Source: an uncultured Rhodobiaceae bacterium
Lineage (GTDB): Bacteria > Pseudomonadota > Alphaproteobacteria > Rhizobiales > TMED25
Direction: 5' to 3'
Assembly: GCA_913045225.1 (NCBI GenBank)
Contig: CAJWPC010000004.1
Location: forward strand, 26,626 to 90,625
Length of the DNA: 64,000 bases
Both the position numbers and the translations under genes were made by a program. Each line of letters begins with the position of its first letter. Position 1 is the stretch's first letter. Below, piece after piece: positions 21,610 to 46,603 of the stretch. A model generated the notes under the pieces. It had not been told where the DNA came from. It was given only the letters and a program-made list of their open reading frames with translations, and ran no database searches.

Positions 21610-22605
21610 ATGACAATGACAATAGATATGCACACCCATGTAGCACCTAGACAAGCTGTAAAAATTGCAGAAAGTGGAGGAACATGGCATGGTGTAGAAT
21701 TTTATCGCGATAAAAATGATAAGCTGACAACATCCTATGGCAATCTAAAGATGTCCCTACCATGGCCAAAAAAAATGGAAACGCCAGATGAAAGACTCAA
21801 CTCCATGGACGCTCGTAAAATTGATATGCATATATTGAGCATTAGCCCTCTAATGCATTGGCACGGTCTTGATAATACAAATGCGGTAGCATACGCAAAA
21901 GATGTTAATGATGACATATCAGACTATGCAAGCATCAATGGGAACAGATTTAAATCATTCTGTTTTTTACCGCTACAAGATCCTAAAGCATCGGTAATTG
22001 AACTTGAAAGATGTATAAATTCAAAAAAGATGCTGGGTGCTATGGTTGCTACAAATGTAAATGGAATGGATTGGGATGATAATGAGTTATATCCAGTTTT
22101 AGAAGCTGCCAATGATTTAAAATGTATAATTTTTTTTCACCCCACGCGGGGTCGAGCAGACTCATGGTTAAAGAATTACCATTTAAGAAATCTTATCGGT
22201 AATCCATTGGAAACAACGGCAGCTATGGGATCTATTATTTTTGGGGGGATTTTAGATAAACTTCCTGACCTCAACCTATGTTTTGCTCATGCTGGGGGAT
22301 TTATTCGCCAAGGCATAGGTAGATTTGATCATGGGTACAGAGTTAGGGAAGAAGCAAAAGAAAATATTTCTAATTTACCGTCTTCTTATCTAAAAAATTT
22401 TTATTATGACACCATAACACACTCAGAAAGCGGTCTCAGAAATCTAATTGATACTGTTGGTATAGATAAAATATTTTTAGGAAGTGACTACCCGGCTGAT
22501 ATGGGTGAACCTTATCCAGTTGACTTTGTAAGTAATTGTCAGTCTTTATCAAAGGAAGAAAAAAATAAAATCTTCAGTGAAAACATATCAAGATTCATAA
22601 AATAG
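21610..22605 (+). CDS. amidohydrolase_2 family protein (ACMSD/LigJ/lactonase-type metal-dependent hydrolase or decarboxylase)
   Basis: 331 aa with an N-terminal HxH (IDMHTHV), later FFHP and FAHAGG, and a C-terminal GSDYP motif, characteristic of the ACMSD-like amidohydrolase_2 family. Confidence 0.8.
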   Translation: MTMTIDMHTHVAPRQAVKIAESGGTWHGVEFYRDKNDKLTTSYGNLKMSLPWPKKMETPDERLNSMDARKIDMHILSISPLMHWHGLDNTNAVAYAKDVNDDISDYASINGNRFKSFCFLPLQDPKASVIELERCINSKKMLGAMVATNVNGMDWDDNELYPVLEAANDLKCIIFFHPTRGRADSWLKNYHLRNLIGNPLETTAAMGSIIFGGILDKLPDLNLCFAHAGGFIRQGIGRFDHGYRVREEAKENISNLPSSYLKNFYYDTITHSESGLRNLIDTVGIDKIFLGSDYPADMGEPYPVDFVSNCQSLSKEEKNKIFSENISRFIK

Positions 22606-22615
22606 GAAATTTATA

Positions 22616-23026
22616 ATGAAAAGAAAAGAAAAGAATGAAAAAAACAGCAAGCTTGCTGAGACATTCGCCGAAAGAAGGAGTCATGTATATCCTGCGCATG
22701 AATGGTTAGCTGAAAAATTTCCAGAATATGTTCAAATTATGCTTGATTTAGATTTTGAAATAAGACAAAAAACAAAAATTTACGATGAGAAGATGCATGA
22801 GCTTTTCCATATAATCGCACTTGCAGTTAAAGGCTCCAATCCTCATAATCAACCACATCTTAAAGCGCACATAAAGAAAGGTTTGAAATTGGGTTTGAAA
22901 CCTGAAGAGATTGCCGAAGCATTAATGGTTTGTGTGAATCCTGGAGGCGCAATGGTCCTAACTTACAGTGTCACATGTATGCTTGAAGCACTTGAAGAAC
23001 TGGAGGAAGAAGGTTGGCAAGGATAA
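22616..23026 (+). CDS. AhpD-like / carboxymuconolactone decarboxylase (CMD) family protein
   Basis: 136 aa, all-helical, with CMD-domain-like spacing (...HELFHIIALAV....H...H...GL..GLKPEEIAEAL...). Assignment is family-level only. Confidence 0.6.
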   Translation: MKRKEKNEKNSKLAETFAERRSHVYPAHEWLAEKFPEYVQIMLDLDFEIRQKTKIYDEKMHELFHIIALAVKGSNPHNQPHLKAHIKKGLKLGLKPEEIAEALMVCVNPGGAMVLTYSVTCMLEALEELEEEGWQG

Positions 23027-23035
23027 AATAGGAAA

Positions 23036-24139
23036 CTAAATGTTAGCCAAAGGCACCGGTTGACCTGTTTCTGATGCTTCTGCCATAGCAAGAGTTACAG
23101 CCAGAGTTTGCCGAGCCTCTTTTGCTGTTGTGAGATGGCATTTCGCTCCTGTTGATTGTGAGTCAAGCCATTCTTTTGTTTCATCTGCTATACGACCGAA
23201 CATAATTCCATCTGCCCACTCACCAGAGGATCTACTACCCAAAAATGCTAAGTTTAATTTTTGATCTGGAGCATAAGCATTGCTGTATCCATGTTCAGAA
23301 TACATAATTTGATCTCGGTGGTCGTCATCTATTAGTATAACACCATCCCGACCCATTACTTCAAGCCGAACACTTTGTCCTGTTGTTGGGAAGCCTCCCG
23401 GTAAGGCATAGCATATATCAAATGAGAAAACGGCCCCGGTTGAATATTTTACCATTGTTAGACTAATATCATCGACATCAAATCCTTGGTCTCTGAAGAT
23501 AGTTCCATGACCCATTGCCTGAACTTCCACTGGAGAAACATCGGGACCAAGACACCACCCAATATAATCAACGTTATAGGTAATAATGTCCAATATTGGT
23601 GTTGCCTCTGGACATCTTTTAAGAATTTCAAGCATATTTGTTCTCGTGTTATAAACACGTGTCATACCGCCTAATATTGGACCAAGTTTTCCTTTCGAAA
23701 TTTCATCATGTGCCACAAAATATTTTTGAAGAAATCGCTGGGAATAACCAATCCTCAGATCAACACCTTTTTCTTGAGCTAATTTTGATAACCGGTCACC
23801 ATCGTCTATTGTCAGGGCGAGTGGCTTTTCAACTAATACCGACTTGCCTGCCATAATTGCAGCTTCAACTGAGTCCCTGTGTTGATCTTCGGGCGTTGAT
23901 ACAATAACTACATCAACTCTTGGGTCATTAATTAATTCAAAATTATCCGTTGAATATCCATTTGCCTTTGATGCTTCTGCTAATTTTCTTGCTTGATCTT
24001 CATTGATGTCGCCAACAACAAGATAGCTAACGGCAGGATGAAGAGATGCTAATCTTGCTCTGTGCGAGCCCATTCTTCCGGAACCCACTACAGCAACGCC
24101 TAATTGGCGCTTTTTGAACTCATTACCTGAGAGGATCAT
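23036..24139 (-). CDS. Gfo/Idh/MocA family NAD(P)-dependent oxidoreductase (copy 1)
   Basis: 367 aa with an N-terminal Rossmann motif (GVAVVGSGRMG) and the EKP motif (VLVEKPLA) typical of the family. Confidence 0.85.
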   Translation of the reverse strand: MILSGNEFKKRQLGVAVVGSGRMGSHRARLASLHPAVSYLVVGDINEDQARKLAEASKANGYSTDNFELINDPRVDVVIVSTPEDQHRDSVEAAIMAGKSVLVEKPLALTIDDGDRLSKLAQEKGVDLRIGYSQRFLQKYFVAHDEISKGKLGPILGGMTRVYNTRTNMLEILKRCPEATPILDIITYNVDYIGWCLGPDVSPVEVQAMGHGTIFRDQGFDVDDISLTMVKYSTGAVFSFDICYALPGGFPTTGQSVRLEVMGRDGVILIDDDHRDQIMYSEHGYSNAYAPDQKLNLAFLGSRSSGEWADGIMFGRIADETKEWLDSQSTGAKCHLTTAKEARQTLAVTLAMAEASETGQPVPLANI

Positions 24140-25161
24140 GCAACTTCTTTCTTTGGAATCCCACCCCTCTCAACATAAGAGTATCTCTCCATTAAGTCTG
24201 GCGCTAAAGCTCTTCTGAATTCTTTTGGGAATGAAATCCACATTCTGAGTAGATGCCTTTTTAGCTTTGGATCCTCATGATCTATAAAGTCCTCTCTGGC
24301 ATGCAATATCTGATGATTATTGATAAATTGTATATCACCCTCATTAAAATCCATAGAAAGACGAAGTGACTCACGTTCACCTATTTCTTGAACAACATCA
24401 AGTGCCTCTCTCTGCAAATCTGTCAGCGCGAGGTGTTGACCATGACGTGTAACTGACTCAAAAAATGCTCTTGATGTAAGACGTGATGTCAATTTTCCTG
24501 CAAAATGACTGTACATTGGGCAAGTATACCATGGTTGTTCACCTTCAGGATTTTCACCTCTCCAATCAAGATTAAAAGGACTATGCAATATATCTAGAAG
24601 GTCAGGTCTCTCTTCCCTAATAACATTATGAATTGTTAGCGCTGACACTAGGAAGCTTGCGCCTCCTTTCTTTGCTTTTCTTTGACAAAATAAGCCCACA
24701 ACATCAACAGGTAACTGATCTGAATGAAAATCCATTTTCAATGTAGTTTGATAGAGTCTTGTGGTAGGATCAGACATCTTTTTCCCCTCATCAGTCACAT
24801 GTCCAAGCAGATGTCCTCTTGTATTTTGCGATACAGGCCTGCCTAAATGCAAACCAATGCCCCAATAAATTAATTCGCACTCTTGATCTGTGTACCTATC
24901 ACGATCAATGCCTCTTAACAGAACAAATCCCAGTTGATTTTCCAAAACATCATATAAAGAGGTAAGCTTTTTTGAGAGCGTTGGAAGACTAAAGTCTTCT
25001 TTGTTAAATGGTATACTTAAATTTCGTTCTTTTACCGATTGAAGCGCACTATGTATTTCTTCAAGTTCCACTTCATCTAAATGTATCAACCATTCATTTG
25101 AATTTTGAATATCTGGACCAAACCATGCAGCCCGCTCTTTAATTAAACCATCATATACCAT
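24136..25161 (-). CDS. TauD/TfdA-family Fe(II)/2-oxoglutarate-dependent dioxygenase
   Basis: HxD (MDFHSDQ) plus a distal His (NNHQILHAREDF) and an Arg pair (RHLLRMW). The start is set at the ATG at 25161 (MVYDGLIK...), 1 nt after the terC-like stop. The ORF-track start at 25218 would overlap that gene. Confidence 0.8.
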   Translation of the reverse strand: MVYDGLIKERAAWFGPDIQNSNEWLIHLDEVELEEIHSALQSVKERNLSIPFNKEDFSLPTLSKKLTSLYDVLENQLGFVLLRGIDRDRYTDQECELIYWGIGLHLGRPVSQNTRGHLLGHVTDEGKKMSDPTTRLYQTTLKMDFHSDQLPVDVVGLFCQRKAKKGGASFLVSALTIHNVIREERPDLLDILHSPFNLDWRGENPEGEQPWYTCPMYSHFAGKLTSRLTSRAFFESVTRHGQHLALTDLQREALDVVQEIGERESLRLSMDFNEGDIQFINNHQILHAREDFIDHEDPKLKRHLLRMWISFPKEFRRALAPDLMERYSYVERGGIPKKEVA

Positions 25162-25162
25162 C

Positions 25163-25855
25163 TTAATCGCTTCCTTTTTGTCTAAACTTCGAAATAAAAT
25201 ACGAACAAGCAATGACAATCATAGCACACGCGATTGATGCTTGTAAAATATTATCCTTTGATACGAATGGGAATAAACCTTGAGTTCCAATATCTGTAAA
25301 AAGTAAATGTCCAGCAATCCATCCTAACAGAGCCCCACCAAACCATATTAAAATTGGTAACTTCGAAAATACTCTTAGTAGAAATGCACTGCCGATGAAT
25401 AACAAAGGAATGGAGAATAATATTCCAAAAATGATTAAAATCACGGATCCATGGGCTGCAGCAGCAACGGCAAGTACATTATCCAAACTCATTGCTGCAT
25501 CTGCAATTGCGATTGTGAGGATAACCTTCCATAACGTCTTAGCTTCGCCATGCTTTGGCTGAACACTCTCTTTTTCTGGCAATATCAGTTTTATTGCAAT
25601 CCATAGTAATAAGATACCACCAATTGTTCGTATGTAGGGCATATCAAGAATTAGAGTGATTATACTTGCAAAAAATATTCTTAAAATAATTGCAGTAGCA
25701 ACTCCAAAAATCATTCCAATCTTCTTCTGATGTTCAGGTAACCCTCGGCATGCAAGAGCAATAACGATAGCATTATCGCCGCTCAATATTAAATCGATCC
25801 ACATAATCTGAAGAATTGGAATTAAATCAATATTTGATAGTATATTCTGTATCAT
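25163..25855 (-). CDS. TerC/YjbE-family integral membrane protein
   Basis: 230 aa with two copies of the TerC signature (DLILSGDNAIVIA and AAMSLDNVLAVAA) and about 7 TM helices. Confidence 0.85.
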   Translation of the reverse strand: MIQNILSNIDLIPILQIMWIDLILSGDNAIVIALACRGLPEHQKKIGMIFGVATAIILRIFFASIITLILDMPYIRTIGGILLLWIAIKLILPEKESVQPKHGEAKTLWKVILTIAIADAAMSLDNVLAVAAAAHGSVILIIFGILFSIPLLFIGSAFLLRVFSKLPILIWFGGALLGWIAGHLLFTDIGTQGLFPFVSKDNILQASIACAMIVIACSYFISKFRQKGSD

Positions 25856-25879
25856 GTAATTATGAGATATACCTTCGCA

Positions 25880-26929
25880 TTATACAAAATCATTTCTTGG
25901 CAAGGATACAGGCTCACCAAGCTTGACAGACATGTCTGCAGCTTGAGATACTTGCATAACTAACTTTGCCTCCTCACCAGAGATCATAACGGGATGATCA
26001 AAAACTATTGCACTTAAAAAGTGATTAATCTCCTCGTGCATAGATCCTGCAAAAACGTGATCTATCTGCTCACCAGGCATGGATGACATTGGATATTGTA
26101 TTCCGTCCTTGATCGTGCTCAACTGTATATCTTTGTGAGAGTCATCAATTGTTAGCGTCCCCTCAGTTCCAACAATCTCAATAAATGCCTGCACGTAATT
26201 TGGAGTGTGCGGTGGTAGTATCCAACCAATCCCAACAGTTATGGTTGTACCATCATCCATTGTTATCATGCACCACTGATGATCGGGGTTGTTACTATTC
26301 TTCGAAAATAGTTTCCCTGATGTTTGAGAGTAAACCCTTACAGGTTTTCTCGGCTGCATTGCCCAAAGTATGTAATCAAAATCATGAACGCCAGCAATAG
26401 ATGCTGGCGAGAGATCTGATCTACCGGTTATCTTCATCCCTAATTCTCGTGTAGAATGACGTGATATTAAACAAGTTACAGGATCCCCAATCAAACCACC
26501 TTTCAGCGCTTTGTTCATGTATGCATATCTGGGATCAAATCTTCTCGAATATCCAATCGTTAATTTTAAATTATTTTTTTTTGCCAATTGTAGTGCCTCA
26601 TCTGCTTCTTTTATGGTTGGGGCAAGTGGTTTTTCAACAAATACGTGCTTTCCTTTCTCAAGACACTCCATTACTAAAGGAAATCGCTTTGTCTCAGGGG
26701 TCATTGATATTACAATTGCATCAACGTTATCATCATCAACGAGATCTTTCCAGTTATCAGTAATTATGTCAGGTTCAAGTTCAGCTCTGAGCTCTTGCTG
26801 CCTTTTCTCATCAATTTCTGCAATATATAATTTATCAACAATCGGATTCTTTTTCACGGCAGTTGCTCGAATCCCACCAACCCATCCAACACCAACAACA
26901 CCCACGTTTATTTGATTGATTTTCGCCAT
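25880..26929 (-). CDS. Gfo/Idh/MocA family NAD(P)-dependent oxidoreductase (copy 2)
   Basis: 349 aa with GVVGVGWVGG and VFVEKPLA. Confidence 0.85.
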   Translation of the reverse strand: MAKINQINVGVVGVGWVGGIRATAVKKNPIVDKLYIAEIDEKRQQELRAELEPDIITDNWKDLVDDDNVDAIVISMTPETKRFPLVMECLEKGKHVFVEKPLAPTIKEADEALQLAKKNNLKLTIGYSRRFDPRYAYMNKALKGGLIGDPVTCLISRHSTRELGMKITGRSDLSPASIAGVHDFDYILWAMQPRKPVRVYSQTSGKLFSKNSNNPDHQWCMITMDDGTTITVGIGWILPPHTPNYVQAFIEIVGTEGTLTIDDSHKDIQLSTIKDGIQYPMSSMPGEQIDHVFAGSMHEEINHFLSAIVFDHPVMISGEEAKLVMQVSQAADMSVKLGEPVSLPRNDFV

Positions 26930-27059
26930 GAAATATACTTAACAACAAATATTTAGCAACATCAAGCCTAAAGATATATTCCCTAATGGTATTGACAGAT
27001 CATCTATTATTAGTAACCTATAACTCTTGATGAATGATGTATAGCGAGGGAGCCAAAAA

Positions 27060-28442
27060 ATGGATATAGCCAGACAATATGCTAAGTATGCTACAAATTT
27101 AGATTATAATGACCTGCCTGAAGAGGTAATATTGCATGTTAAAAAAGCAATATTAGATATTATGGGTAATGATATTGGCGGATATGAATGGATGGAGTCA
27201 GGTCCATCAATTGTAGATGGTATAAGGGTAATTAATAGAGGTAATGGCGGCGCAACCGTCTTAGCAACAGGTGAGAGTATGGCACCTGAATGGGCCTCAT
27301 TTGCAAATGCATCGATGGCCCATAGTCTTGATTATGATAACCATCACGCTAAAGGAGTTATTCACGCTGGTGGTTCGGTTGTGAATTGTGCTCTTGCCGC
27401 TGCTGAAGAAAATAATTCCGGTGGGAAAGAGCTCATTGTATCAGTAGTAGTAGGTTACGAAATAGCTTGCCGGCTTGCGATGGCATTGGGGCCTCATTCT
27501 TCACATGAAATGGGATTTCATCCAACAGGTACGTGTGCAACATTTTCAGGTTCTGCCATAATCGGGCGAAATAGAAAAATGTCTGAGGATGAAATCGTAA
27601 ATGCGATGGGCCTGAATGGCTCCCAAGCTGCAGGCTCCATGCAGTACGTCGTAAACGGAGCATGGAATAAGCGTACGCATCCGGGCATAAATACTCACAG
27701 CAGTTTCATTGCAGCCACATTGGCGCAATCTGGCTTTATTGGAGCCGCTGAAGTTTTTGAAGGTAAGCAAGGTTTCTTGCAAGGGTATGCCCTGAGACCC
27801 CTGCCTGAGAATGCAACAAAAACACTTGGCAAGAGTTACGAAACTCTTGAAAATGCGATAAAGCCATTTCCTTTATGTCGATATAATCATCAAACACTTG
27901 ACTTGGTGATTGATTATCAAAAAGAAAATAACATAGATACAAAAAAAATATCCTCAATCACTATTGATATGCCAAAATATGGCGTACAACTATGTGGTTC
28001 CCCTATTGAGCAAAAAAGGAACCCGCAATCTCCTGTAGACGCACAATTTTCTGGGTGTTTCGCAGTTGCACTAGCGCTAACAGAGCAAAGAGCGGATATG
28101 ACAACCTTTACTGGAGCCTTGGATAAAGGGTTATCGGATGAATTTAAAAGACTTATGTCAATAACAAACATAGAGCAAGCTGATGACCTTGATGCCATTC
28201 ATCCAGAGTTCTGGCCAGGGAGGGTTAAAATGATAATTGATGGTGATGAGGTAGAGCTTTATGGCAAACACATGCGCGGAGAAAGAGAGAGGCCAATGAC
28301 CATCGAAGAAGTACAGGATAAATTTAGAGATCTCAGCCCAAAGCATGATGAAAAAAATAGGAAAGAAGTTTTCGACGTAATAAATAATCTAGAAAATGCG
28401 TCGATTGATGATCTTCTGGTACCACTTAGAAAATCTAGTTAA
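27060..28442 (+). CDS. MmgE/PrpD family protein (2-methylcitrate dehydratase-like fold, activity unknown)
   Basis: 460 aa with the typical N-terminal A.Y......Y.DLPEEV....K..ILD..G and full-length MmgE/PrpD-like organisation. A GGGAG Shine-Dalgarno sequence lies 7 nt before the ATG. Confidence 0.8.
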   Translation: MDIARQYAKYATNLDYNDLPEEVILHVKKAILDIMGNDIGGYEWMESGPSIVDGIRVINRGNGGATVLATGESMAPEWASFANASMAHSLDYDNHHAKGVIHAGGSVVNCALAAAEENNSGGKELIVSVVVGYEIACRLAMALGPHSSHEMGFHPTGTCATFSGSAIIGRNRKMSEDEIVNAMGLNGSQAAGSMQYVVNGAWNKRTHPGINTHSSFIAATLAQSGFIGAAEVFEGKQGFLQGYALRPLPENATKTLGKSYETLENAIKPFPLCRYNHQTLDLVIDYQKENNIDTKKISSITIDMPKYGVQLCGSPIEQKRNPQSPVDAQFSGCFAVALALTEQRADMTTFTGALDKGLSDEFKRLMSITNIEQADDLDAIHPEFWPGRVKMIIDGDEVELYGKHMRGERERPMTIEEVQDKFRDLSPKHDEKNRKEVFDVINNLENASIDDLLVPLRKSS

Positions 28443-28468
28443 TTATTTAATTTAGGAGAATAAAATCG

Positions 28469-29569
28469 ATGTTTAAAATTGCAAAAATTGAAGCATGTGC
28501 TGTAGCTATTCCGCTAAAAATGCCAATAAAAATGTCAGGTATTTTAATCGAAACTTGTGATAACCTCATAGTTAAAGTAACAGATACTGAAGGAAATGTT
28601 GGCTGGGGGGAAGCTTCATCAGCGCCAACAATGACAGGGGAAACAGTTGAAGGACTAGTAGCTGCAACAAACTTCATGGCGCAGAGGCTGGAAGGTACTG
28701 AGATACAAGACCAAAATCAACTCGTTGCAGCTATTGAGCCATTAATGGTTGCAAATCACAGCGCTAAATCTGCTATTGATGGAGCACTTTACGATCTTAT
28801 TGGAAAGCATACTAATAAACCGATGTATGAGCTTCTTGGAGGTAAAAAAAGGGATCAAGCTCCAATGTTTTGGATGATCGCGGGGAGTAAGGATGAAATG
28901 GAACTAGCGCAGGCAAGGATAGATGAAGGATACATAGCCTTTAAAGTTAAGGTTGGTCCAAATCCTCCTGAATACGACCTTGAGCGCTCGGAAAAATCAA
29001 GAAAAATTTGCGGAGACAATGTTCATGTCTCAGCCGATGCAAACCAGGGATACAGCCCAGAGAATGCATTCACATTTGCTAAAGGCGCTGGTAATGCAGG
29101 TTTAGATTTTTTTGAACAACCAGTCCACGGACACGATATTAAGTCAATGAGCAAATGCGCAGAATTATGTGATGTTCCAATTGGAGCAGACGAGGGCATT
29201 CATTCCATCGAAGACATACAAAAACATTATGATGCAGGTGCAGCCATGGGTGGAAGTCTCAAGCTTATAAAGCTCGGCAGCGCTCAGGGAGTTATGGAAG
29301 GTGCAAAATTGATGCAGTCATTATCAATGTCAGTTAATTTGGCTGGTAAGACAGCCGATACCAGTATAGCAAGTGCTGCAATATCTCATTTAGCTGTTTC
29401 ACTACCAACCCTTGAATGGGACGCAAGTGTAACAAATCAATATCTAACAGATGATATTGTTAAGAACCCGATACCAGTCGTTAACGGTCACATAATAACT
29501 CCAGACGGACCAGGTCTTGGTATCGAAGTAGATGAGAGTAAAATCGATCAATACCGTAGAGCAGTCTAA
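28469..29569 (+). CDS. enolase-superfamily enzyme, muconate-lactonizing-enzyme (MLE) subgroup (racemase/epimerase/cycloisomerase type)
   Basis: 366 aa. It has KxK (AFKVKVG), metal ligands D (SADANQGY), E (FFEQP) and D (IGADEG), and a second catalytic Lys (LKLIKLG). Confidence 0.85.
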   Translation: MFKIAKIEACAVAIPLKMPIKMSGILIETCDNLIVKVTDTEGNVGWGEASSAPTMTGETVEGLVAATNFMAQRLEGTEIQDQNQLVAAIEPLMVANHSAKSAIDGALYDLIGKHTNKPMYELLGGKKRDQAPMFWMIAGSKDEMELAQARIDEGYIAFKVKVGPNPPEYDLERSEKSRKICGDNVHVSADANQGYSPENAFTFAKGAGNAGLDFFEQPVHGHDIKSMSKCAELCDVPIGADEGIHSIEDIQKHYDAGAAMGGSLKLIKLGSAQGVMEGAKLMQSLSMSVNLAGKTADTSIASAAISHLAVSLPTLEWDASVTNQYLTDDIVKNPIPVVNGHIITPDGPGLGIEVDESKIDQYRRAV

Positions 29570-29578
29570 AGTAGTGAT

Positions 29579-30571
29579 ATGGTCAATCTTGGAATAATTG
29601 GGCTTGGGAATTGGGGTAATAAGCTTGCTAACTCATTACAAAAAATTCCAGAAGCAAATTTAATTTCATGCTTTGCTAGAACTCAGAAAAAGAGGGAGGA
29701 CTTCGCAAATAAACATAACTGTATCGCAAAAGATAGTCTCGACAAGCTTCTTGATGATAAAGATTTAGATGGAGTAATAATATCCACACCACACTCAACA
29801 CATAAAGATTTAATTCTCGAAATTGCAAACTCGAAAAAGCATATAATGGTTGAAAAACCAATGACATTAAATAGCGATGACGCAAAAGTTTGTATTGACT
29901 GCGCTGAAAAAAATAATGTCTACATTCAAGTTGCTCATTATAGGCGCCTTTTACCAGCTACCAGGCTTCTAAAAAAATATATTTTAGATGATAGACTAGG
30001 CAAAATTCATCATTTTGAGTCAAATTTTAGCCGACCTTTCGGGCCAGACCCAAATAGACCATGGAGAGATTCAGAAGATGAGGCTCCAGCTGGTGCATTT
30101 ACTGCTTTAGGCGTACACATGATTGATAACCTATTTTATCTTGGGGGAAATTTTGAGAAATTATGTGCTCTCAGCAGCGTCCTAGATAATGATACCCCTC
30201 TGGATGACATAACAACGGTAATGATTAAATATGAAAGCGGGGCTCATGCAGTAATCAATACGTCTCTCAGGCTGCCATTTATAGCATCAATTTCAGCACA
30301 TGGCGACAAAGGTTCCGCTTGGAGTCTTGCAGATGGCTCAAAGTTCTTATACCAAGGTATTGATGAAGAGACGCAGACAGAAGTTACTCTCAATCAACTA
30401 GATGGAGTGATTGAGAATTTAAAAAACTTTTGCAGCTCAATAAAAACCTCAACCGTTCCTGAAACTTCAGGGTACGAGGGACTCAAAGTTGTCCGAGCTT
30501 TGGAGGCAATAACTGAGTCTGTCGACGCAAATAACTCTTTCATTGACATAAACCTGAAGAGGTGGTCGTGA
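29579..30571 (+). CDS. Gfo/Idh/MocA family NAD(P)-dependent oxidoreductase (copy 3)
   Basis: 330 aa with GIIGLGNWG and IMVEKPMT. Confidence 0.85.
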   Translation: MVNLGIIGLGNWGNKLANSLQKIPEANLISCFARTQKKREDFANKHNCIAKDSLDKLLDDKDLDGVIISTPHSTHKDLILEIANSKKHIMVEKPMTLNSDDAKVCIDCAEKNNVYIQVAHYRRLLPATRLLKKYILDDRLGKIHHFESNFSRPFGPDPNRPWRDSEDEAPAGAFTALGVHMIDNLFYLGGNFEKLCALSSVLDNDTPLDDITTVMIKYESGAHAVINTSLRLPFIASISAHGDKGSAWSLADGSKFLYQGIDEETQTEVTLNQLDGVIENLKNFCSSIKTSTVPETSGYEGLKVVRALEAITESVDANNSFIDINLKRWS

Positions 30572-31464
30572 AAATAAATAAAATTGGACTAATCGGTATG
30601 GGTTTAATGGGGCAAGCATTTATTAAAAATCTTGTCAAGGCACAGATACATGTTCAGGGATTTGATACTGATCAAAAAAGAATGTCTCAACTTAAAGATG
30701 TCGGTGGCACGCCATTGGACTCACCACGCCTTGTCGGCAAGGATGTCAATTTTGTATTAACATCACTTCCAAATAGTACAATTGCAAGGGATGTGTTGTT
30801 CGGTGAGGGAGGGCTTGCAGATAATAACTATCGCGACTTAATTGTTTGCGATACAACAACATCGAGACCAGAGGATAGCGAGAAGATTGCCGGAGAACTA
30901 TCAAATTTTGGGATACATTTCTTAGATACAGCTGTAAGTGGAACAAGCGCAATGGCAGAGGTAGGAGATTTGGTTATCATTGCTGGTGGCTCAAAAGAGA
31001 TATACGACAGGGCAATCCCAATATTAAATACATTTTCCAGAGCATCTTATTATATGGGTCCATCTGGGTCGGGAGCGCGTACAAAACTTGTAATAAATCT
31101 TGTTTTAGCGGGAAACCGTCTCTCGCTAGCGGAAGGGCTTGTGCTGGGAGAAAAGTCCGGGTTAAATCTTGATTCATTACTTGCAGTCGTAAAAGATGGC
31201 GCATGCTCATCGAAAACAATGAGCGATAAAGGGCCCAAGATGATCGATGGTGATTTTAAGACCCAAAGCCTTGTAACAAATGTACTTAAAGACTCCAGAT
31301 TAATGCTTGAGCAAGGACAAAAATTTGGCTCTCCTATGTTAATGACAAATATCTGGTCTCAACTCATGCAGGCCTCAGAAGAGGCAGGTTATGGGGAAAA
31401 AGATGTTACAAGCTTTATTGAAATCCTTCGAGGTATGGCTGGTCTTAAAAGCAGGATAGATTGA
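30562..31464 (+). CDS. beta-hydroxyacid dehydrogenase family protein (3-hydroxyisobutyrate / tartronate-semialdehyde reductase-like)
   Basis: 300 aa with GLIGMGLMG, then DTAVSG and the GSGARTKLVINL motif. The GTG at 30568, giving a GTGA overlap with the upstream stop, is an equally good start. Confidence 0.85.
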   Translation: MVVKINKIGLIGMGLMGQAFIKNLVKAQIHVQGFDTDQKRMSQLKDVGGTPLDSPRLVGKDVNFVLTSLPNSTIARDVLFGEGGLADNNYRDLIVCDTTTSRPEDSEKIAGELSNFGIHFLDTAVSGTSAMAEVGDLVIIAGGSKEIYDRAIPILNTFSRASYYMGPSGSGARTKLVINLVLAGNRLSLAEGLVLGEKSGLNLDSLLAVVKDGACSSKTMSDKGPKMIDGDFKTQSLVTNVLKDSRLMLEQGQKFGSPMLMTNIWSQLMQASEEAGYGEKDVTSFIEILRGMAGLKSRID

Positions 31465-31473
31465 AAAAATTTG

Positions 31474-31549
31474 TGGTGCCCTGACCTAGATTTGAACTAG
31501 GGACACAACGATTTTCAGTCGTTTGCTCTACCAACTGAGCTATCAGGGC
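31474..31549 (-). tRNA. tRNA-Phe (anticodon GAA), CCA encoded
   Basis: The reverse complement reads GCCCTGATAGCTCAGTTGGTAGAGCAAACGACTGAAAATCGTTGTGTCCCTAGTTCAAATCTAGGTCAGGGCACCA. It is a 76-nt cloverleaf with anticodon loop CTGAAAA. Confidence 0.95.
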
Positions 31550-35574: not shown

Positions 35575-35649
35575 GCCGCAGTAGCTCAGTGGTAGAGCGC
35601 ACCCTTGGTAAGGGTGAGGTCGAGTGTTCAATCCACTCCTGCGGCACCA
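35575..35649 (+). tRNA. tRNA-Thr (anticodon GGT), CCA encoded
   Basis: GCCGCAGTAGCTCAGTGGTAGAGCGCACCCTTGGTAAGGGTGAGGTCGAGTGTTCAATCCACTCCTGCGGCACCA, with anticodon loop TTGGTAA. Confidence 0.95.
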
Positions 35650-36200: not shown

Positions 36201-37559
36201 ATGTTCACAAAAAATAGAAATAATGCAATTGAAATTGAGCTTATAAGTAAAAATAAATTAAACAACTATATCAAAGAAAACCCAGATCAAAAAAGATGGA
36301 TCGAGCAAAATACATTTACAGCTGATCCTGGTGAGCTGGTCATAATCCCACAAGATAAAGATAATATAAGAAAAGTTTTACTAGGGAGAACATATGAAAA
36401 TGATGTTTACTCTAAATTTATTTGCAGTAATTTGTCAAAAAAATTACCCGGCAATAATTATTACATTTCAAATTTAGATCCTGACGATATTTTACCGTAT
36501 ATAAGCTGGGCTCTGGGTTGTTATAAATATGATAGTGCACCAATTTCCACTTCAAAACTTTTCCTTCCGGATAAGATCCATAATGAGGTAAGTATTCATG
36601 TGGAAAGTATCTTTTTCACAATGGATCTTATAAATCATCCTGCCAATAGACTTACAACAGAGGAATTTGCAAAAATAATTGGAGAATATTTCACGAATAA
36701 AAACTGTAAAGTCACTGAAATTATCGGAGAAGATCTGCTCAAGCATAATTTCCCTCTGATATATGAGGTTGGAAAAGCAAGCTCGCATAAACCAAGGTTA
36801 GTTGAGATTCAGTGGGGGAAAAAAAATGATCCAAAAGTTACACTAGTTGGAAAAGGCATCACTTTTGATACAGGTGGCTTAGATATTAAACCTTCATCTG
36901 GTATGCTTCTAATGAAAAAAGATATGGGCGGGGCGGCGAATATATTGGGCCTCGCAAATATGATAATTGGAAATAAACTGAATTTAAACTTGAGAGTATT
37001 GATACCAATTGCTGAGAACTCAATTTCAAGTAATTCTTTCAGACCAGGCGATATTTTAAATTCAAGATCAGGTTTGACGGTTGAAATTGGAAACACTGAT
37101 GCAGAGGGTAGATTGATATTAGCAGACTCTCTAACTCTCGCTGATGAGGGCTCCCCAGACTTAATCATCGATATGGCTACCCTGACAGGAGCCGCAAGAG
37201 TGGCGGTGGGACCAGAGATAGTTCCATTCTTTAGTACTAGTGACGCAATTTCTAATATCCTAAAAAAAGTTTCGCAAAATGTTCAAGATCCAGTTTGGGA
37301 ACTTCCATTTTTTGCACCATACGGAAAATGGCTTAATAATGAGATCTCAGACCTGAATAATTCACCAAATACACCGTTTGCAGGCTCTATTATTGCAGCA
37401 GAATTTTTGAAAAAATTTATTACCAATACAAATAATTATTTACATTTCGATGTTTATTCCTGGAATAATGGTACAAACAGGTATATCCCCAAAGGTGGAG
37501 CCGCGCAGGGCATCAGAGCTATTTACCAGCTAATAAAAGAGCTTTATGTTAATAAATAA
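36201..37559 (+). CDS. M17 family leucyl aminopeptidase-like protein
   Basis: 452 aa. M17 catalytic-domain motifs are VGKGITFDTGG, MKKDMGGAA and the signature NTDAEGRLILAD. Confidence 0.9.
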   Translation: MFTKNRNNAIEIELISKNKLNNYIKENPDQKRWIEQNTFTADPGELVIIPQDKDNIRKVLLGRTYENDVYSKFICSNLSKKLPGNNYYISNLDPDDILPYISWALGCYKYDSAPISTSKLFLPDKIHNEVSIHVESIFFTMDLINHPANRLTTEEFAKIIGEYFTNKNCKVTEIIGEDLLKHNFPLIYEVGKASSHKPRLVEIQWGKKNDPKVTLVGKGITFDTGGLDIKPSSGMLLMKKDMGGAANILGLANMIIGNKLNLNLRVLIPIAENSISSNSFRPGDILNSRSGLTVEIGNTDAEGRLILADSLTLADEGSPDLIIDMATLTGAARVAVGPEIVPFFSTSDAISNILKKVSQNVQDPVWELPFFAPYGKWLNNEISDLNNSPNTPFAGSIIAAEFLKKFITNTNNYLHFDVYSWNNGTNRYIPKGGAAQGIRAIYQLIKELYVNK

Positions 37560-37573
37560 TTTTAAGGTGTAGC

Positions 37574-38365
37574 ATTCAACGCATTATTACAATTCCCAAA
37601 ACGGATATTAAGAAAGAGCCATCAAATTCTTCTGAAACAATATCGGAGGCTCTTTACGGTGAATTCATAGGGATTGAGGATGAAGATGAAAAGTGGATAT
37701 ATGGAAGATTATTAAATGATAACTATCGTGGTTATGTGGTAAAAACCGCAACTAAAGTTGAAGACCACAAATTAAATAATTCTTCTCTTAAAATCAGTGC
37801 GAATAGTACCCACATATATTCCACTCCAGACCCAAAATCACCTATTAAAAAAACTTTATTCAGAAATTCAAGAGTACTTTGTGACTTGTCCAACGTAAAA
37901 AATGATTTCGTAAAAGTTAATTTTGAGGATGGGTTTATAAATACCAGTCATGTTCGGAGAAATCTCGAAAAAAAAACAGATTTTGTTGATGTAGCAAAAA
38001 GTTATGTTGGGGCACCATACAAATGGGGTGGAAGGACTATTCTTGGAATAGATTGTTCTGGATTAGTTCAAACTTCACTCAATGCGGTTGGTCGGGAGTG
38101 CCCGCGGGATAGTATACAGCAATGTGAACAATTCTGTGGCACTACAGATATTGATCCCGAAATCAGTAATTTACGAAGGGGTGATATTATTTTTTGGGAA
38201 GGTCATGTAGCGATATATGTGCAAACAAATAAAATCATTCATAGTAATATGACCAGTATGGATGTACGAATTGAAAATTTTACAAAGATAAGAGAAATAT
38301 TAGATAAAGAAGATAATCACATTAAGTCAGTCGCTAGGATGATACCCGAATTTATTTATATGTAG
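37574..38365 (+). CDS. NlpC/P60 (C40) cysteine peptidase with two N-terminal SH3b-like domains (YkfC-like), probable ATT start
   Basis: Catalytic motifs GIDCSGLV, GHVAIYV and IIHSN. The first SH3b-like domain (ITIPKTDIKKEPS...EKWIYGRLLNDNYRGYV) is encoded in frame upstream of the ORF-track GTG at 37736, where no ATG/GTG/TTG exists. An ATT at 37574 follows AAGGTG (37564-37569). Confidence 0.75.
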   Translation: MQRIITIPKTDIKKEPSNSSETISEALYGEFIGIEDEDEKWIYGRLLNDNYRGYVVKTATKVEDHKLNNSSLKISANSTHIYSTPDPKSPIKKTLFRNSRVLCDLSNVKNDFVKVNFEDGFINTSHVRRNLEKKTDFVDVAKSYVGAPYKWGGRTILGIDCSGLVQTSLNAVGRECPRDSIQQCEQFCGTTDIDPEISNLRRGDIIFWEGHVAIYVQTNKIIHSNMTSMDVRIENFTKIREILDKEDNHIKSVARMIPEFIYM

Positions 38366-39967
38366 CTAACCCAATAGGGCTGAAGAAATTAATTTTTTTG
38401 TATACTCATTTTTAGGCTTATTAAATATATTTTCTGTATAATCCATCTCAATAATTTCACCAGAGTTTAAAACCATCACTCTATCCGAAATATATCTTAT
38501 GACACGAAGATCATGGCTTATAAAAATATATGAAGTATTAAATTTATCTTGTAATTTTTTGAGCAAATTTAGTATTTGCAGCTGAACAGTTGCATCCAAG
38601 GAACTCGTTGGCTCATCTAAAACAAGTAATTTTGGCCTTAATATAATCGCTCTTGCTATTGCAATTCTCTGTCGCTGACCACCAGAGAACTCATGCGGGT
38701 ATCTATTCAATTGGTCAGGTTCCAGGCCAACATCCTTGAGTATTTCGAGAACCCTCTCCTTTCTGCTATTTGCATCTAACTCAATTTTTTGCGCAATCAA
38801 TCCTTCTTCAATTATCTGCTCTACTGTCAATCTTGGTGATAGTGATCCGAAAGGGTCTTGAAATACAATCTGTAAATCCTTTCTAATTCTTTTAAGGGCT
38901 TTGAAGGATTTTTTTGCAAGATCATCCCCCATAAAGATAATACTGCCATCAGATTTTATAAGTCTTAAAATTGATAATCCAATAGTTGTTTTACCTGAAC
39001 CTGACTCACCAACTAAACCAATTGTTTCCCCTAAGTTAATTGATAAATTGATATTACTAACAACTTTATTGACTCTTTTCTTACGAAATAATTTATTCTG
39101 TTCATACTGAGCGCTAAGTGAGTTAAGTTTCAATATCTCGAGTGACTTATTTCTTTTTTCTCTCTTTCCCACAAGATTTCTGGCATTGACCAACCTCTTA
39201 GTGTAGGCGTCTCTCGGCTCATTAAATATACTATCTGTTGAACCCTCTTCAACTAAACATCCATTTTGCATTACATAGACATAATCCGTGAAATTTTTTA
39301 CTATACTTAAGTCATGCGTTATAAATAATATAGTTAGGTCTAATTCACGCTGAAGTGTTTTCAATAACTTTAGTATTTCATATTGTACAGTAACATCAAG
39401 TGCGGTTGTTGGCTCATCTGCAATGAGAAGTTTAGGATTATTTGCGAGGGCCATTGCAATCATAACTCTTTGCCTCTCACCACCAGATAACTGATGTGGA
39501 TATCTTGTGAGTTTTTTCTCTGGTTCATTAATCCTCACTTTATGCATTAAATCGATAACTGTGCCCCGAATGTCCTGGGATTTTTTTATCTTATGCAATA
39601 TTAGAGCTTCGCTGATTTGTTTTTCAACTGTATGTAATGGGTTCAATGAGCTAAGCGGTTCTTGAAAAATCATAGATATTTCATTTCCCCTAATTGCATT
39701 CAATTCTCTTTTATCTATTTTTAGTATATCTCTACCTGAAAAAATAATCTGACTTTCATCTGAAATAACGGATGTATTTGGGTTGAGCTTTAATATTGAT
39801 AATGCCGTAAGAGTTTTACCAGAACCTGACTCACCGACAATAGAAATTGTTTTACCTTTAGGGATTGATATATTTAAACTCTGAATCCCAAACACTCCAT
39901 TACCACTAGCAGGAAAGTTGAGCGCGAAATTTATTATTTGCAGTACATTTTTATTACTCGCAATCAT
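38366..39967 (-). CDS. yejF: ABC transporter ATP-binding protein, fused double ATPase (YejF-like)
   Basis: Two Walker A motifs (GESGSGKT twice), two LSGG(E/Q)RQR signatures and two Walker B motifs. The ATG at 39967 (MIASNK...) is preferred because it avoids overlapping yejE. Confidence 0.9.
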   Translation of the reverse strand: MIASNKNVLQIINFALNFPASGNGVFGIQSLNISIPKGKTISIVGESGSGKTLTALSILKLNPNTSVISDESQIIFSGRDILKIDKRELNAIRGNEISMIFQEPLSSLNPLHTVEKQISEALILHKIKKSQDIRGTVIDLMHKVRINEPEKKLTRYPHQLSGGERQRVMIAMALANNPKLLIADEPTTALDVTVQYEILKLLKTLQRELDLTILFITHDLSIVKNFTDYVYVMQNGCLVEEGSTDSIFNEPRDAYTKRLVNARNLVGKREKRNKSLEILKLNSLSAQYEQNKLFRKKRVNKVVSNINLSINLGETIGLVGESGSGKTTIGLSILRLIKSDGSIIFMGDDLAKKSFKALKRIRKDLQIVFQDPFGSLSPRLTVEQIIEEGLIAQKIELDANSRKERVLEILKDVGLEPDQLNRYPHEFSGGQRQRIAIARAIILRPKLLVLDEPTSSLDATVQLQILNLLKKLQDKFNTSYIFISHDLRVIRYISDRVMVLNSGEIIEMDYTENIFNKPKNEYTKKLISSALLG

Positions 39968-39968
39968 G

Positions 39969-41081
39969 TCAATCAATAAATACCTTTCTCGGATCAAAGG
40001 CATCTCTTACACCTTCACCGATAAAAATCAATAAACTTAACAGGACGGCAATACCGAAGAAGCTTGTCAAACCTAGCCATGGTGCATGAATATTGTTTTT
40101 ACCTTGCGATAGGAGCTCTCCGAGTGATGCTGATCCAGGAGGTAGGCCAAAACCCAGAAAGTCGAGTGACGTAAGAGTGACAATTGATCCATTTAATATG
40201 AACGGTAAGAATGTTAAAGTCGCAACCATTGCATTTGGAAGAAGGTGCTTGAACATGATTTTGATATTTGACACCCCTAATGCTTTTGCAGCTAATACAT
40301 ATTCAAAATTTCTTGCTCTCAAAAATTCTGCTCTTACCACCCCAACTAAACTAACCCATGAAAAAAGTAATAAAATCAATAAAAGAAGCCAGAAGGACGG
40401 TGTTATGACAGCAGATATTATTATGAGCAGATACAATGATGGAATTGAATTCCATATTTCGATTAATCTCTGTGAAAACAGATCGGTTAGACCACCAAAA
40501 AAACCTTGTAATGCACCAACAATTATCCCGATACACGATGATAAAATAGTTAAAATTAAACCAAATATAACAGAAATACGAAAACCATACACTAATCTTG
40601 CCAAAACATCCCTACCTTGATCATCGGTGCCAAGCCAATTCCAATTCCAAATACTGCAATTTTTATCATCGATGCCACCCGGATAATTCTGACATCGGAT
40701 TTCCCTCTCGATTAAAAAAGATGGTGGTGAAGGGGCTGGAGATGGAATCTCATAATTGATTGTTTGGTAATTATAGCGAACTAAAGGCCACAAAATCCAT
40801 CCATTCGCTTCAATCTCATCTGAAATAAATGGGTCCCTGTAGTCAGTTACCGCCAGAAATCCGCCAAATCTTTCTTCGGGATAATCGATAATAATAGGCA
40901 TAAGTAGTTCACCCTTATAATAGGCGATTACAGGCTTATCATTAATTAAAAACTCAGAAAATAATGATACTAGGAAAAGAAAAAAGAAAATCCTCAATGA
41001 TATGAAAGCACGTCTATTTTTTTTAAAATTATTCAGCCTTCTTCTTGTTACTGGGGTAATATTTTTATATCGGTTCCACAT
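39969..41081 (-). CDS. yejE: ABC transporter permease (YejE-like, peptide/opine BPD family)
   Basis: 370 aa, polytopic, with an N-terminal extension typical of YejE and the permease EAA-like loop (EYVLAAKALGVSN). Confidence 0.88.
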   Translation of the reverse strand: MWNRYKNITPVTRRRLNNFKKNRRAFISLRIFFFLFLVSLFSEFLINDKPVIAYYKGELLMPIIIDYPEERFGGFLAVTDYRDPFISDEIEANGWILWPLVRYNYQTINYEIPSPAPSPPSFLIEREIRCQNYPGGIDDKNCSIWNWNWLGTDDQGRDVLARLVYGFRISVIFGLILTILSSCIGIIVGALQGFFGGLTDLFSQRLIEIWNSIPSLYLLIIISAVITPSFWLLLLILLLFSWVSLVGVVRAEFLRARNFEYVLAAKALGVSNIKIMFKHLLPNAMVATLTFLPFILNGSIVTLTSLDFLGFGLPPGSASLGELLSQGKNNIHAPWLGLTSFFGIAVLLSLLIFIGEGVRDAFDPRKVFID

Positions 41082-41105
41082 TTATATATATCTGTATTGC
41101 CTCGA

Positions 41106-42203: not shown

Positions 42204-42234
42204 AATAACTGATCAATATTTTGGTATATGCGGT

Positions 42235-46476: not shown

Positions 46477-46575
46477 GTGAGAAGTTAGTGCTGGACGCAA
46501 TTATCGCCAATCGGGTCAGGTCCGGAAGGAAGCAGCCACAACGATTTTTTTGCGGGTCATTGGCTAACTTCTCAC
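46477..46575 (+). ncRNA. ffs: signal recognition particle RNA (4.5S type)
   Basis: Contains the universally conserved domain IV sequence GGTCAGGTCCGGAAGGAAGCAGCC. The ends form a long helix (GTGAGAAGTTAG...CTAACTTCTCAC). Its position just upstream of dnaX is a common arrangement. Confidence 0.9.
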
Positions 46576-46603
46576 AAATTGCTGGATTAGTGAGAGTAAT
46601 AAT

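Follow-up and report, generated by a model that had tools for sequence, protein, structure and literature searches.

Positions 21610-31464 of a 64,000-nucleotide stretch of DNA from an uncultured Rhodobiaceae bacterium (contig CAJWPC010000004.1; the whole stretch is called the window here) hold ten genes. They encode an MmgE/PrpD-family protein, an enolase-superfamily enzyme of the muconate-lactonizing enzyme (MLE) subgroup, a TauD-family Fe(II)/2-oxoglutarate (2OG) dioxygenase, three Gfo/Idh/MocA oxidoreductases (GfoA, GfoB and GfoC), an Amidohydro_2 protein, a protein of the carboxymuconolactone-decarboxylase (CMD) family, a dehydrogenase of the HIBADH family and a TerC-family membrane protein. 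On balance, we favour the view that the genes form a catabolic cluster, built of modules and shared horizontally, that breaks down a small polar organic acid; a substituted di- or tricarboxylate or a hydroxy-polycarboxylate is the likeliest candidate. As a catabolic operon, the cluster is a known kind of system; what is new is an unassigned pathway made of poorly charted clades of known superfamilies. Full-text literature searches found no description of this family combination.

A sequence-only reading of this DNA had listed the ten open reading frames (ORFs), and their coordinates, strands, spacers and families were all confirmed by re-reading the ORFs and by Pfam. Every family assignment exceeded the Pfam gathering score, and the catalytic motifs of the enolase member and the dioxygenase, the EKP motifs of the three Gfo enzymes and the ligands of the amidohydrolase are intact. 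None of the ten proteins reached an NCBIfam equivalog cut-off, and every equivalog match scored far below it, for example 40 vs. 950 bits for PrpD, 182 vs. 335 for mucon_cyclo, 111-137 vs. 355 for iolG, and 170-175 vs. 350-397 for the tartronate-semialdehyde and threonate dehydrogenase models. The closest solved relatives of the cluster proteins have E-values of 1e-25 to 1e-54. The same reading had proposed an undescribed route; high-identity matches to characterized enzymes, which would speak against it, were sought in NCBIfam and among solved structures, and none was close.

Conservation of the cluster in other genomes

A profile of the PrpD-like protein was scanned against one genome per prokaryotic species. 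Orthologues were found in 38 loci, all from metagenome-assembled or single-cell genomes (MAGs or SAGs), with 60-97% identity apart from one full match. The 100% match came from an OCS116-cluster single-cell genome, and those of 94-97% came from other OCS116 and 'Rhodobiaceae' MAGs. The window belongs to the OCS116 clade of the Alphaproteobacteria. The hosts are marine Hyphomicrobiales, Acidimicrobiia, Verrucomicrobiales, Chthoniobacterales, Nitriliruptorales, one Flavobacteriales-labelled bin and unclassified bins, and the scan returned no cultured host. Among metagenome sequences, near-identical copies of the PrpD-like gene number in the hundreds.

All ORFs of the fetched loci were translated and compared with the ten window proteins. 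Co-occurrence was counted in the species-level loci with at least 4 kb on both sides of the PrpD-like gene (n = 25; 12 of the OCS116 type and 13 others). As a control, we used 27 loci of a 30-39% identical PrpD paralogue from Nitrospinota, Tectomicrobia, Rokubacteria and similar groups. A Gfo/Idh/MocA gene lies near the PrpD-like gene in 23 of the 25 loci (11/13 outside the OCS116 type), an MLE-type enolase gene in 22 (10/13), an Amidohydro_2 gene likewise in 22 (10/13), and a TauD gene in 19 (7/13); each of these families was found in 0/27 control loci. TerC and CMD genes were each present in 12/25 loci, in 0/13 of those outside the OCS116 type and in 0/27 controls. A HIBADH gene was found in 9/25 loci (4/13) and in 24/27 controls. 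Precomputed Pfam tables of independent contigs agree with these counts.

The conserved core thus counted consists of the PrpD-like, MLE, Gfo, Amidohydro_2 and TauD families. That the genes travel together outside this genome was a point on which the earlier proposal could have failed; they recur together in at least four phyla. As a single unit of ten genes the set holds only in part, since this core of five families co-occurs, whereas TerC, CMD, GfoA and GfoB are largely confined to the OCS116-type lineage.

Three layouts were seen. The OCS116 type carries the full set in identical order in 12 species-level loci, between rpoN and tRNA-Phe. The Hyphomicrobiales type has only PrpD, MLE (72% identity), a short-chain dehydrogenase/reductase and Gfo (53%), followed by a 2-oxoacid:ferredoxin oxidoreductase and CoA-transferases. 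In the actinobacterial/verrucomicrobial type, Gfo-MLE diverges from PrpD-TauD, with Amidohydro_2 adjoining; its MLE partner is only about 30% identical to that of the window, yet belongs to the MLE subgroup. Extra genes of this type encode IclR, major facilitator superfamily (MFS), EamA or ATP-binding cassette (ABC) transport proteins, an FMN-dependent 2-hydroxy-acid dehydrogenase, a family-III CoA-transferase, an aldo-keto reductase, a thiamine diphosphate (ThDP) enzyme and luciferase-type monooxygenases. The modules PrpD-MLE-Gfo, TauD-Gfo and Amidohydro_2-CMD were each found singly. Because the modules occur in separate settings, the ten genes are an assembly around a conserved core and not an indivisible unit.

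The control loci show a second conserved pairing of their own: in 24 of the 27 (L054-L089, e.g., L064:10001-13265), the 30-39% identical PrpD paralogue has a HIBADH-type gene about 1 kb downstream, the hosts being Nitrospinota, Tectomicrobia and unclassified genomes.

The PrpD-like signature protein

The signature gene of the cluster (27060-28442, + strand) encodes a clear member of the MmgE/PrpD family, with 196.6 bits for MmgE_PrpD_N and 86 bits for the C domain against a Pfam cut-off of 32.1. As judged from sequence and a predicted fold, the protein groups with IRG1 and iminodisuccinate (IDS) epimerase, not with true PrpD. A PDB profile search matched only IRG1 (B. subtilis IRG1/YxeQ), IDS epimerase and cis-aconitate decarboxylase (CAD). 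Foldseek comparisons, which the sequence-only reading had named as a check, were run on models of this protein and of the dioxygenase; the nearest folds were IRG1/IDS epimerase/CAD and TtnM/FrbJ, respectively. The PrpD-like model (predicted confidence, pLDDT, 84) reached template-modelling (TM) scores of 0.76-0.81 with IRG1, IDS epimerase and CAD and lower scores with true PrpD/MmgE, the range over MmgE/PrpD family structures being 0.69-0.81. H102, H154, K204 and K268 align with the family His/Lys positions of the CAD active site, at an identity of only ~20%. The protein also carries an unusual, invariant acidic motif, DYDNHH. YxeQ of B. subtilis is itself without known function (PMC9706529).

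A role as 2-methylcitrate dehydratase PrpD was rejected: the protein scores 40 bits where 950 are required, true PrpD/MmgE structures are missing among its sequence matches, and there are no prpB, prpC or acn neighbours. A LigU-type tie to the lig pathway was dropped as well, as LigU, a PrpF-like protein, is not among the PDB matches. A pairing on a Parasedimentitalea plasmid was set aside because the PrpD there is non-orthologous (24% identical).

More distant relatives of the PrpD-like protein (37-42% identity) occur on plasmids of cultured haloarchaea; plasmid searches gave none above 42%. The Halalkalicoccus sp. FCH27 plasmid NZ_CP144463.1 (L097; 104.6-125.6 kb) carries four adjacent MmgE/PrpD paralogues in a cultured host, next to genes for a PrpF-domain protein, a LeuCD-like dehydratase, an amidase, an IclR regulator and a tripartite tricarboxylate (Tct) transporter. 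The neighbours of the relative in Halorussus aquaticus XZYJ18 are MR/MLE, an isocitrate/isopropylmalate-type dehydrogenase, Ldh_2, CaiB-type CoA-transferases and an MFS protein. One metagenome protein (P0098) joins a PrpD-like sequence to the N domain of a ThDP enzyme and is either a real fusion or an artefact of gene calling or assembly.

The dioxygenase

The dioxygenase gene (24136-25161, - strand) is best started at the ATG at 25161, because the resulting product of 341 amino acids matches the length of its orthologues (341-343 amino acids); the mechanical ORF list extends to a TTG at 25218. Membership of the TauD/TfdA family is clear (Pfam TauD 118.8 vs. 27 bits; 5e-34), and H146, D148 and H283 (HxD...H) together with the 2OG-binding R289 are invariant in 24 orthologues. 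By sequence, the closest solved relatives are TtnM (7n7v; 2e-47) and FrbJ (5eqn; 7e-45), and the model (pLDDT 87) matches the same two by fold (E ~1e-25). None of the NCBIfam models for taurine, alkylsulfatase or sulfonate dioxygenases was matched, the sole NCBIfam match being gamma-butyrobetaine dioxygenase at 29.7 vs. 414 bits. A taurine/alkanesulfonate dioxygenase (TauD proper) was therefore rejected for want of a curated model match.

TtnM and FrbJ both hydroxylate the methylene beta to a terminal anionic group. A hydroxylation of this kind would yield a beta-hydroxy acid, which is the substrate class of HIBADH and plausible for the coupled GfoA. TtnM itself belongs to the module that makes tautomycetin's dialkylmaleic anhydride, starting from 2-oxoglutarate and propionate (PMC11350588).

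Orthologues of the dioxygenase at ≥59% identity outnumber those of the PrpD-like protein. Elsewhere they occur as a bare TauD-Gfo pair (L094), with a TAXI-TRAP system, or, in the case of a 65% orthologue (L096), with LysR, MLE, two HIBADH genes and a DctQMP system of the tripartite ATP-independent periplasmic (TRAP) type. Plasmid searches gave TauD relatives of at most 43% identity. A 457-amino-acid metagenome protein (P0121), 99% identical to the dioxygenase, has an added asparaginase domain; this too may be a real fusion or a gene-calling or assembly artefact.

The MLE-type enolase and the dehydrogenases

The MLE-type gene (28469-29569, + strand; Pfam MR_MLE_N + C) encodes an epimerase, cycloisomerase or dehydratase candidate. 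Aligned to 1jpm and 2muc, it shows KxK on strand 2 (FKVKVG), the metal ligands D/E/D (DANQ, EQP, ADEG) and the second Lys on strand 6 (KLIKLG), which places it in the MLE subgroup of the enolase superfamily. It is equidistant from dipeptide epimerases and muconate cycloisomerases. The KxK/K signature described in the sequence-only reading was confirmed in this alignment; its use, by itself, to exclude sugar-acid routes does not stand, since galactarolactone and anhydrogalactonate cycloisomerases are members of the same subgroup.

Two specific assignments were rejected. An L-Ala-D/L-Glu epimerase would have DxD after strand 8, where this motif holds the ammonium group of the dipeptide, whereas the enzyme reads D-A-S where 1jpm has D-F-D and scores 114.6 vs. 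500 bits. For a muconate or chloromuconate cycloisomerase, TIGR02534 gave the 182 vs. 335 bits mentioned above, and catA, catC and pcaD were not found in the window. At 36201-44052, 5-7 kb downstream of the cluster, lie genes for an M17 aminopeptidase, an NlpC/P60 protein and an SBP_bac_5 (peptide/opine-type, Opp-type) ABC transporter. This set resembles B. subtilis ykfABCD around the L-Ala-D/L-Glu epimerase, which is the best match of the MLE-type enzyme. Recycling of peptidoglycan peptides was rejected nevertheless: DxD is missing, housekeeping genes intervene, and the MLE gene travels with the PrpD-like gene where peptide genes are absent.

All three Gfo/Idh/MocA enzymes were assigned by Pfam. 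GfoC (29579-30571, + strand) is the copy kept across phyla; its orthologues there are 40-53% identical and adjoin MLE. GfoA (23036-24139, - strand) has a 56% identical orthologue outside the OCS116 type (L034), and GfoB (25880-26929, - strand) has one 45% relative there (L031). The start of GfoA overlaps the stop of TauD by 4 nt, giving translational coupling. The beta-hydroxyacid dehydrogenase (30562-31464, + strand; Pfam NAD_binding_2 + NAD_binding_11) falls below all NCBIfam cut-offs.

The amidohydrolase, CMD and TerC proteins

The Amidohydro_2 gene (21610-22605, + strand; Pfam 2.3e-33) encodes a putative ACMSD-type metal-dependent decarboxylase or hydratase. Its best solved relative is human ACMSD (1e-53), while LigJ and LigI structures are weak matches (1e-7 to 1e-8). 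The HxH, His, His and Asp ligands and the equivalent of Arg235 are kept, but that of Arg47 is not. ACMSD proper was rejected, as the alignment, gapped at this point, places Leu or Pro opposite R47 and no kynurenine- or nitrobenzoate-pathway neighbours are present in the window.

The adjacent CMD/AhpD-fold protein (22616-23026, + strand) scores 26.3 bits in Pfam CMD against a cut-off of 23; the CxxC motif of AhpD is missing. In 12/12 OCS116-type loci it forms a pair with Amidohydro_2, and the pair appears again in L009 (64% and 48% identity). The membrane protein (25163-25855, - strand) belongs to the TerC/YjbE subfamily (NCBIfam TIGR03717, 213.7 vs. 134.8 bits) and may be a lineage-specific passenger or accessory gene. 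A scan of the window with Rfam detected no riboswitch (including yybP-ykoY) or other RNA control of TerC.

Transport and regulation

The sequence-only reading had remarked on the absence of a binding protein, transcription factor, CoA ligase and aldolase, and indeed no regulator, binding protein, CoA ligase or aldolase lies within 21610-31464. The lack of a transporter and regulator holds for this lineage, but not for sister species and other phyla, which have TRAP, MFS, EamA, ABC, IclR and LysR genes. In seven sister species (L015, L016, L017, L019, L020, L029, L037), a TRAP system DctP-DctQ-DctM takes the place of HIBADH between GfoC and tRNA-Phe (e.g., L016:13663-16647). Other loci carry IclR or LysR regulators, MFS or EamA permeases, ABC genes and CoA-transferases. 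The DctP of L096 has the canonical carboxylate-binding Arg motif GLRMRV.

The two operons diverge from a promoter spacer at 26930-27059. When 10 related spacers were aligned, a single block before the ribosome-binding site proved invariant, namely ATTGACA at 26991-26997 (TTGACA at 26992-26997); the alignment showed no conserved palindrome. The block lies ~65 nt before the start codon of the PrpD-like gene and is likely the -35 element of its operon; the -10 region is poorly defined. Generic promoter and terminator scans gave counts at chance level. Constitutive expression from a conserved -35 element of the sigma-70 type is probable: unregulated sigma-70 expression fits because ATTGACA is invariant and no palindrome is conserved. 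Constitutive expression is common in streamlined oligotrophs.

A proposed route and its alternatives

In the route we propose, the substrate would be taken up by a transporter encoded elsewhere in the genome, sister species having TRAP genes within the cluster. Like TtnM and FrbJ, the dioxygenase would hydroxylate an unactivated CH2 close to an anionic group, and the resulting alcohol would be oxidized to a keto acid by GfoA and the HIBADH-type enzyme. Removal of carboxyl groups or hydration of the product could then fall to the ACMSD-type and CMD-type proteins. The PrpD-like enzyme might isomerize, epimerize, (de)hydrate or decarboxylate a polycarboxylate intermediate, while the MLE-type enzyme might take a proton alpha to a carboxylate in order to epimerize or (de)lactonize, with GfoC acting beside both. 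The products would reach central metabolism in the form of 2-oxo acids or dicarboxylates; other lineages would use CoA-transferases and 2-oxoacid oxidoreductases for this. We infer this order of hydroxylation, dehydrogenation and decarboxylation, with the isomerization, epimerization or lactone chemistry of the PrpD-like and MLE-type enzymes alongside it.

Breakdown is preferred over synthesis because the cluster has no synthetase, ligase or transferase. An anionic substrate is favoured because importers and catabolic-type regulators accompany related loci, because known members of several of the families act on unsaturated or hydroxylated polycarboxylates and lactones, and because CoA-transferases and 2-oxoacid oxidoreductases lie downstream in other lineages. 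Among CoA-transferases, those of the succinate-glutarate and mesaconate types come closest to the ones in actinobacterial loci; NCBIfam gave no equivalog-level assignment for neighbour genes in other phyla. The earlier guess of a polar organic acid thereby gains support from the TRAP genes of sister and related loci, the dicarboxylate-type CoA-transferases and the tricarboxylate-type contexts of distant PrpD-like relatives.

Several observations weigh against this reading. The specificity inferences all rest on relatives that are at most ~40% identical, and TtnM and FrbJ are both biosynthetic. A set of three Gfo/Idh/MocA enzymes is more usual where sugars or cyclitols are oxidized. The MLE step may not be equivalent in other phyla, since their MLE is only ~30% identical. 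No exit enzyme (aldolase, thiolase or CoA-transferase) is present in the window cluster. Finally, the sister-lineage DctP reads GEKIAGAG, with Lys or Ala (depending on the alignment) at the canonical carboxylate-binding Arg site, which makes its ligand class less certain.

The three Gfo genes, which NCBIfam matches best to inositol and sugar dehydrogenases, also speak for the most probable of the alternatives, in which a sugar, cyclitol or sugar-acid lactone would be broken down by an oxidative, non-phosphorylative route; we regard this as unlikely though worth keeping in mind. Here the Gfo enzymes would oxidize ring hydroxyls or the anomeric carbon, the Amidohydro_2 protein would be a lactonase or lactone isomerase, the MLE-type enzyme a lactone cycloisomerase and the PrpD-like protein a dehydratase. 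MLE-subgroup cycloisomerases and Amidohydro_2 lactone isomerases do act on galactarolactone, 4ggb/4hpn are among the MLE matches (1.7e-21), aldo-keto reductases occur in several loci, and L009 has further genes for an ABC system of the sugar type (SBP_bac_1), a lactonase resembling sulfomuconolactone hydrolase and an FAH enzyme resembling didehydro-deoxy-rhamnonate hydrolase. However, the cluster has no kinase, aldolase, acid-sugar dehydratase or glycosidase, the amidohydrolase is nearest to ACMSD-type decarboxylases and not to lactonases, PrpD-family enzymes take part in no known sugar pathway, and the TRAP, Tct and CoA-transferase contexts point to acids. A breakdown of organosulfonates or sulfate esters appears rather improbable. 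It would have the TauD enzyme free sulfite or sulfate, GfoA and HIBADH process the aldehyde or ketone, and TerC or another membrane protein handle the oxyanion, and it draws on the fact that most bacterial TauD-family enzymes desulfonate or cleave sulfate esters. HIBADH resembles sulfolactaldehyde reductase (1e-46, below the cut-off), and L090 has a thiamine pyrophosphate (TPP) enzyme distantly like Xsc together with an Ldh_2 gene. Two further sulfur-related contexts are possibly coincidental: ATP sulfurylase with a PF03601 membrane protein 5 kb from the TauD orthologue of L096 (457-4561), and Sulf_transp with DUF302 directly upstream of the PrpD-like gene in L007 (8202-9885) and L008. Such neighbours occur in single loci only. 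Moreover, the dioxygenase matches no taurine, alkylsulfatase or sulfonate dioxygenase model and has only C-H hydroxylases as close solved relatives, the cluster encodes neither a sulfite exporter nor a sulfite dehydrogenase, and the TerC relatives are tied, by their NCBIfam name, to metal export and not to oxyanions.

The biosynthetic nature of the closest solved dioxygenase relatives could instead suggest the making or tailoring of a small secreted polycarboxylate, metallophore-like or of the anhydride type, with TerC or MFS proteins as exporters. A 34% relative lies in an Allorhizobium non-ribosomal peptide synthetase cluster, TerC is annotated as a putative metal transporter, and the MFS protein of L009 resembles siderophore and drug exporters at low scores. 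We give this idea little credence: no version of the cluster contains a synthetase, ligase, condensing enzyme or group transferase, importers (TRAP and ABC binding proteins) and catabolic-type IclR and LysR regulators accompany it, and the host has a streamlined oligotroph genome. That unrelated oxidoreductases without a shared pathway came together by accident is very hard to believe. The PrpD-MLE-Gfo and TauD-Gfo modules do occur alone, and several members come from very large, promiscuous families, but the genes overlap or nearly abut, their order is identical in 12 species, and the same families recur at the orthologue in other phyla and never at the paralogue.

Within the preferred reading of a route for a polar organic acid, one specific substrate can be put forward as a long shot, namely carboxyl-rich products of pigment photo-oxidation whose carboxyalkyl side chains would be trimmed without CoA. 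An example is hematinic-acid-type 2-(2-carboxyethyl)-3-methylmaleate, the non-hydroxylated form of the dialkylmaleic acid acted on by TtnM; chlorophyll, haem or bilins may be its sources. The TtnM-like dioxygenase would make a beta-hydroxy acid, a Gfo enzyme or HIBADH would convert it to a beta-keto acid, and the ACMSD-type, CMD-type and PrpD-like enzymes would decarboxylate and isomerize the maleate/aconitate-like core. If true, abundant surface-ocean bacteria would have a dedicated sink for a class of dissolved organic matter without a known degradation pathway.

OCS116, marine Acidimicrobiia and Verrucomicrobiota, which share the core, are abundant uncultured consumers of dissolved organic carbon in the ocean. 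The cluster itself is abundant in surface seawater. Because it is conserved, laterally exchanged and matches no described pathway, it would mark a compound that cells often meet and for which current metabolic models have no route. Through it, three poorly charted clades become accessible to functional assignment: the IRG1/IDS-epimerase-like PrpD branch, the TtnM/FrbJ-like TauD branch and an MLE-subgroup enolase that is still unassigned. In the sister lineage, the TRAP binding protein provides a direct experimental handle on the substrate.

Gene arrangement, genomic setting and origin

Within the leftward operon, 24 nt separate GfoB from TerC and 1 nt separates TerC from TauD, followed by the 4-nt overlap of TauD and GfoA; in the rightward operon, the start of HIBADH (30562) overlaps the end of GfoC (30571). 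These near-abutting or overlapping genes suggest co-translation. Housekeeping genes flank the cluster, which sits between rpoN and tRNA-Phe: a 3'-5' exonuclease, lptC, lptA, lptB and rpoN on the left, and tRNA-Phe, a small ORF at the yacG position of L001, maf, hisD and aroA on the right.

The GC content of the cluster is 39.3% vs. 35.2-35.3% in the flanks, making it the most GC-rich 10 kb of the window (+4%). The tRNA-Phe gene (31474-31549, - strand, 3' end towards the cluster; ARAGORN and Rfam) lies 10 nt beyond the last cluster gene and has the same position in six relatives (L001, L012, L013, L016, L020, L037). Of the features of a tRNA-associated genomic island, the tRNA border and the GC shift were seen, while an integrase and att-like flanking direct repeats were not found at the tRNA-Phe border. 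The GC shift, the tRNA-Phe border and the cross-phylum distribution suggest, but do not prove, an old lateral acquisition of the cluster.

Two antisense ORFs inside GfoB, at 26511-26915 (+; 134 amino acids) and 26461-26763 (+; 100 amino acids), have low-complexity translations and are almost certainly spurious. The window also holds a gene for a bacterial small signal recognition particle (SRP) RNA at 46479-46576, tRNA-Ser at 4443-4532 and tRNA-Thr at 35575-35649.

Comparison with known systems

Families of the cluster are shared with the beta-ketoadipate and protocatechuate 4,5-cleavage pathways, namely MLE (CatB), CMD (PcaC), Amidohydro_2 (LigI, LigJ, LigW, ACMSD) and Gfo/Idh/MocA (LigC). 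However, a ring-cleavage dioxygenase, an enol-lactone hydrolase, a thiolase and a LigK aldolase are missing from every version of the cluster, and a PcaIJ-family CoA_trans gene (PF01144) is near it only in L091/L092. The protocatechuate 4,5-cleavage (lig) pathway was rejected since LigAB, LigI, LigJ and LigK were not found in the window or in related loci, in keeping with the earlier judgement that the lig resemblance fails.

A likeness to mandelate-type pathways, in which alpha-hydroxy acids pass through a racemase, an FMN dehydrogenase and a ThDP decarboxylase, appears in the actinobacterial versions, which add FMN_dh beside a second MR/MLE gene and a ThDP enzyme. By analogy, this set suggests racemization, oxidation and decarboxylation of a 2-hydroxy acid. 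In contrast, the window has neither an FMN_dh nor a ThDP gene, its enolase is of the MLE and not the MR subgroup, and the PrpD-like and TauD proteins have no counterpart in mandelate-type pathways. Glutarate hydroxylation (CsiD/GlaH + LhgO) follows the same logic, with an Fe/2OG dioxygenase that adds a hydroxyl group to a dicarboxylate and a dehydrogenase that turns the product into the keto acid, and the dioxygenase of the cluster has a weak CsiD Pfam match and a GlaH fold match (E 1e-11). GlaH is nevertheless distant, the partner dehydrogenase belongs to another family, and that system has two genes rather than ten.

The PrpD-like protein matches IRG1/CAD, YxeQ and iminodisuccinate epimerase best, both in sequence and in fold, and keeps the His/Lys positions that align with the CAD active site. 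The differences lie in the identity of ~20%, in the DYDNHH motif found here and in the partners, as the known systems have no MLE, TauD or Gfo genes.

A further comparison is the dialkylmaleic-anhydride module of tautomycetin and tautomycin (TtnM, O, P, R). The dioxygenase of the cluster is a clear TtnM homologue, many non-alphaproteobacterial loci pair the cluster with a family-III CoA-transferase like TtnP, and TtnR is a PrpD-type dehydratase. The Ttn module differs in that it is biosynthetic, comes from actinomycetes and belongs to a polyketide cluster; MLE, Gfo, ACMSD-type and CMD genes are absent from the module, the identity is ~32-40%, and the window cluster has no citryl-CoA-lyase-like gene. 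The compound handled by the Ttn module is an eight-carbon tricarboxylate built from 2-oxoglutarate and propionate (PMC11350588).

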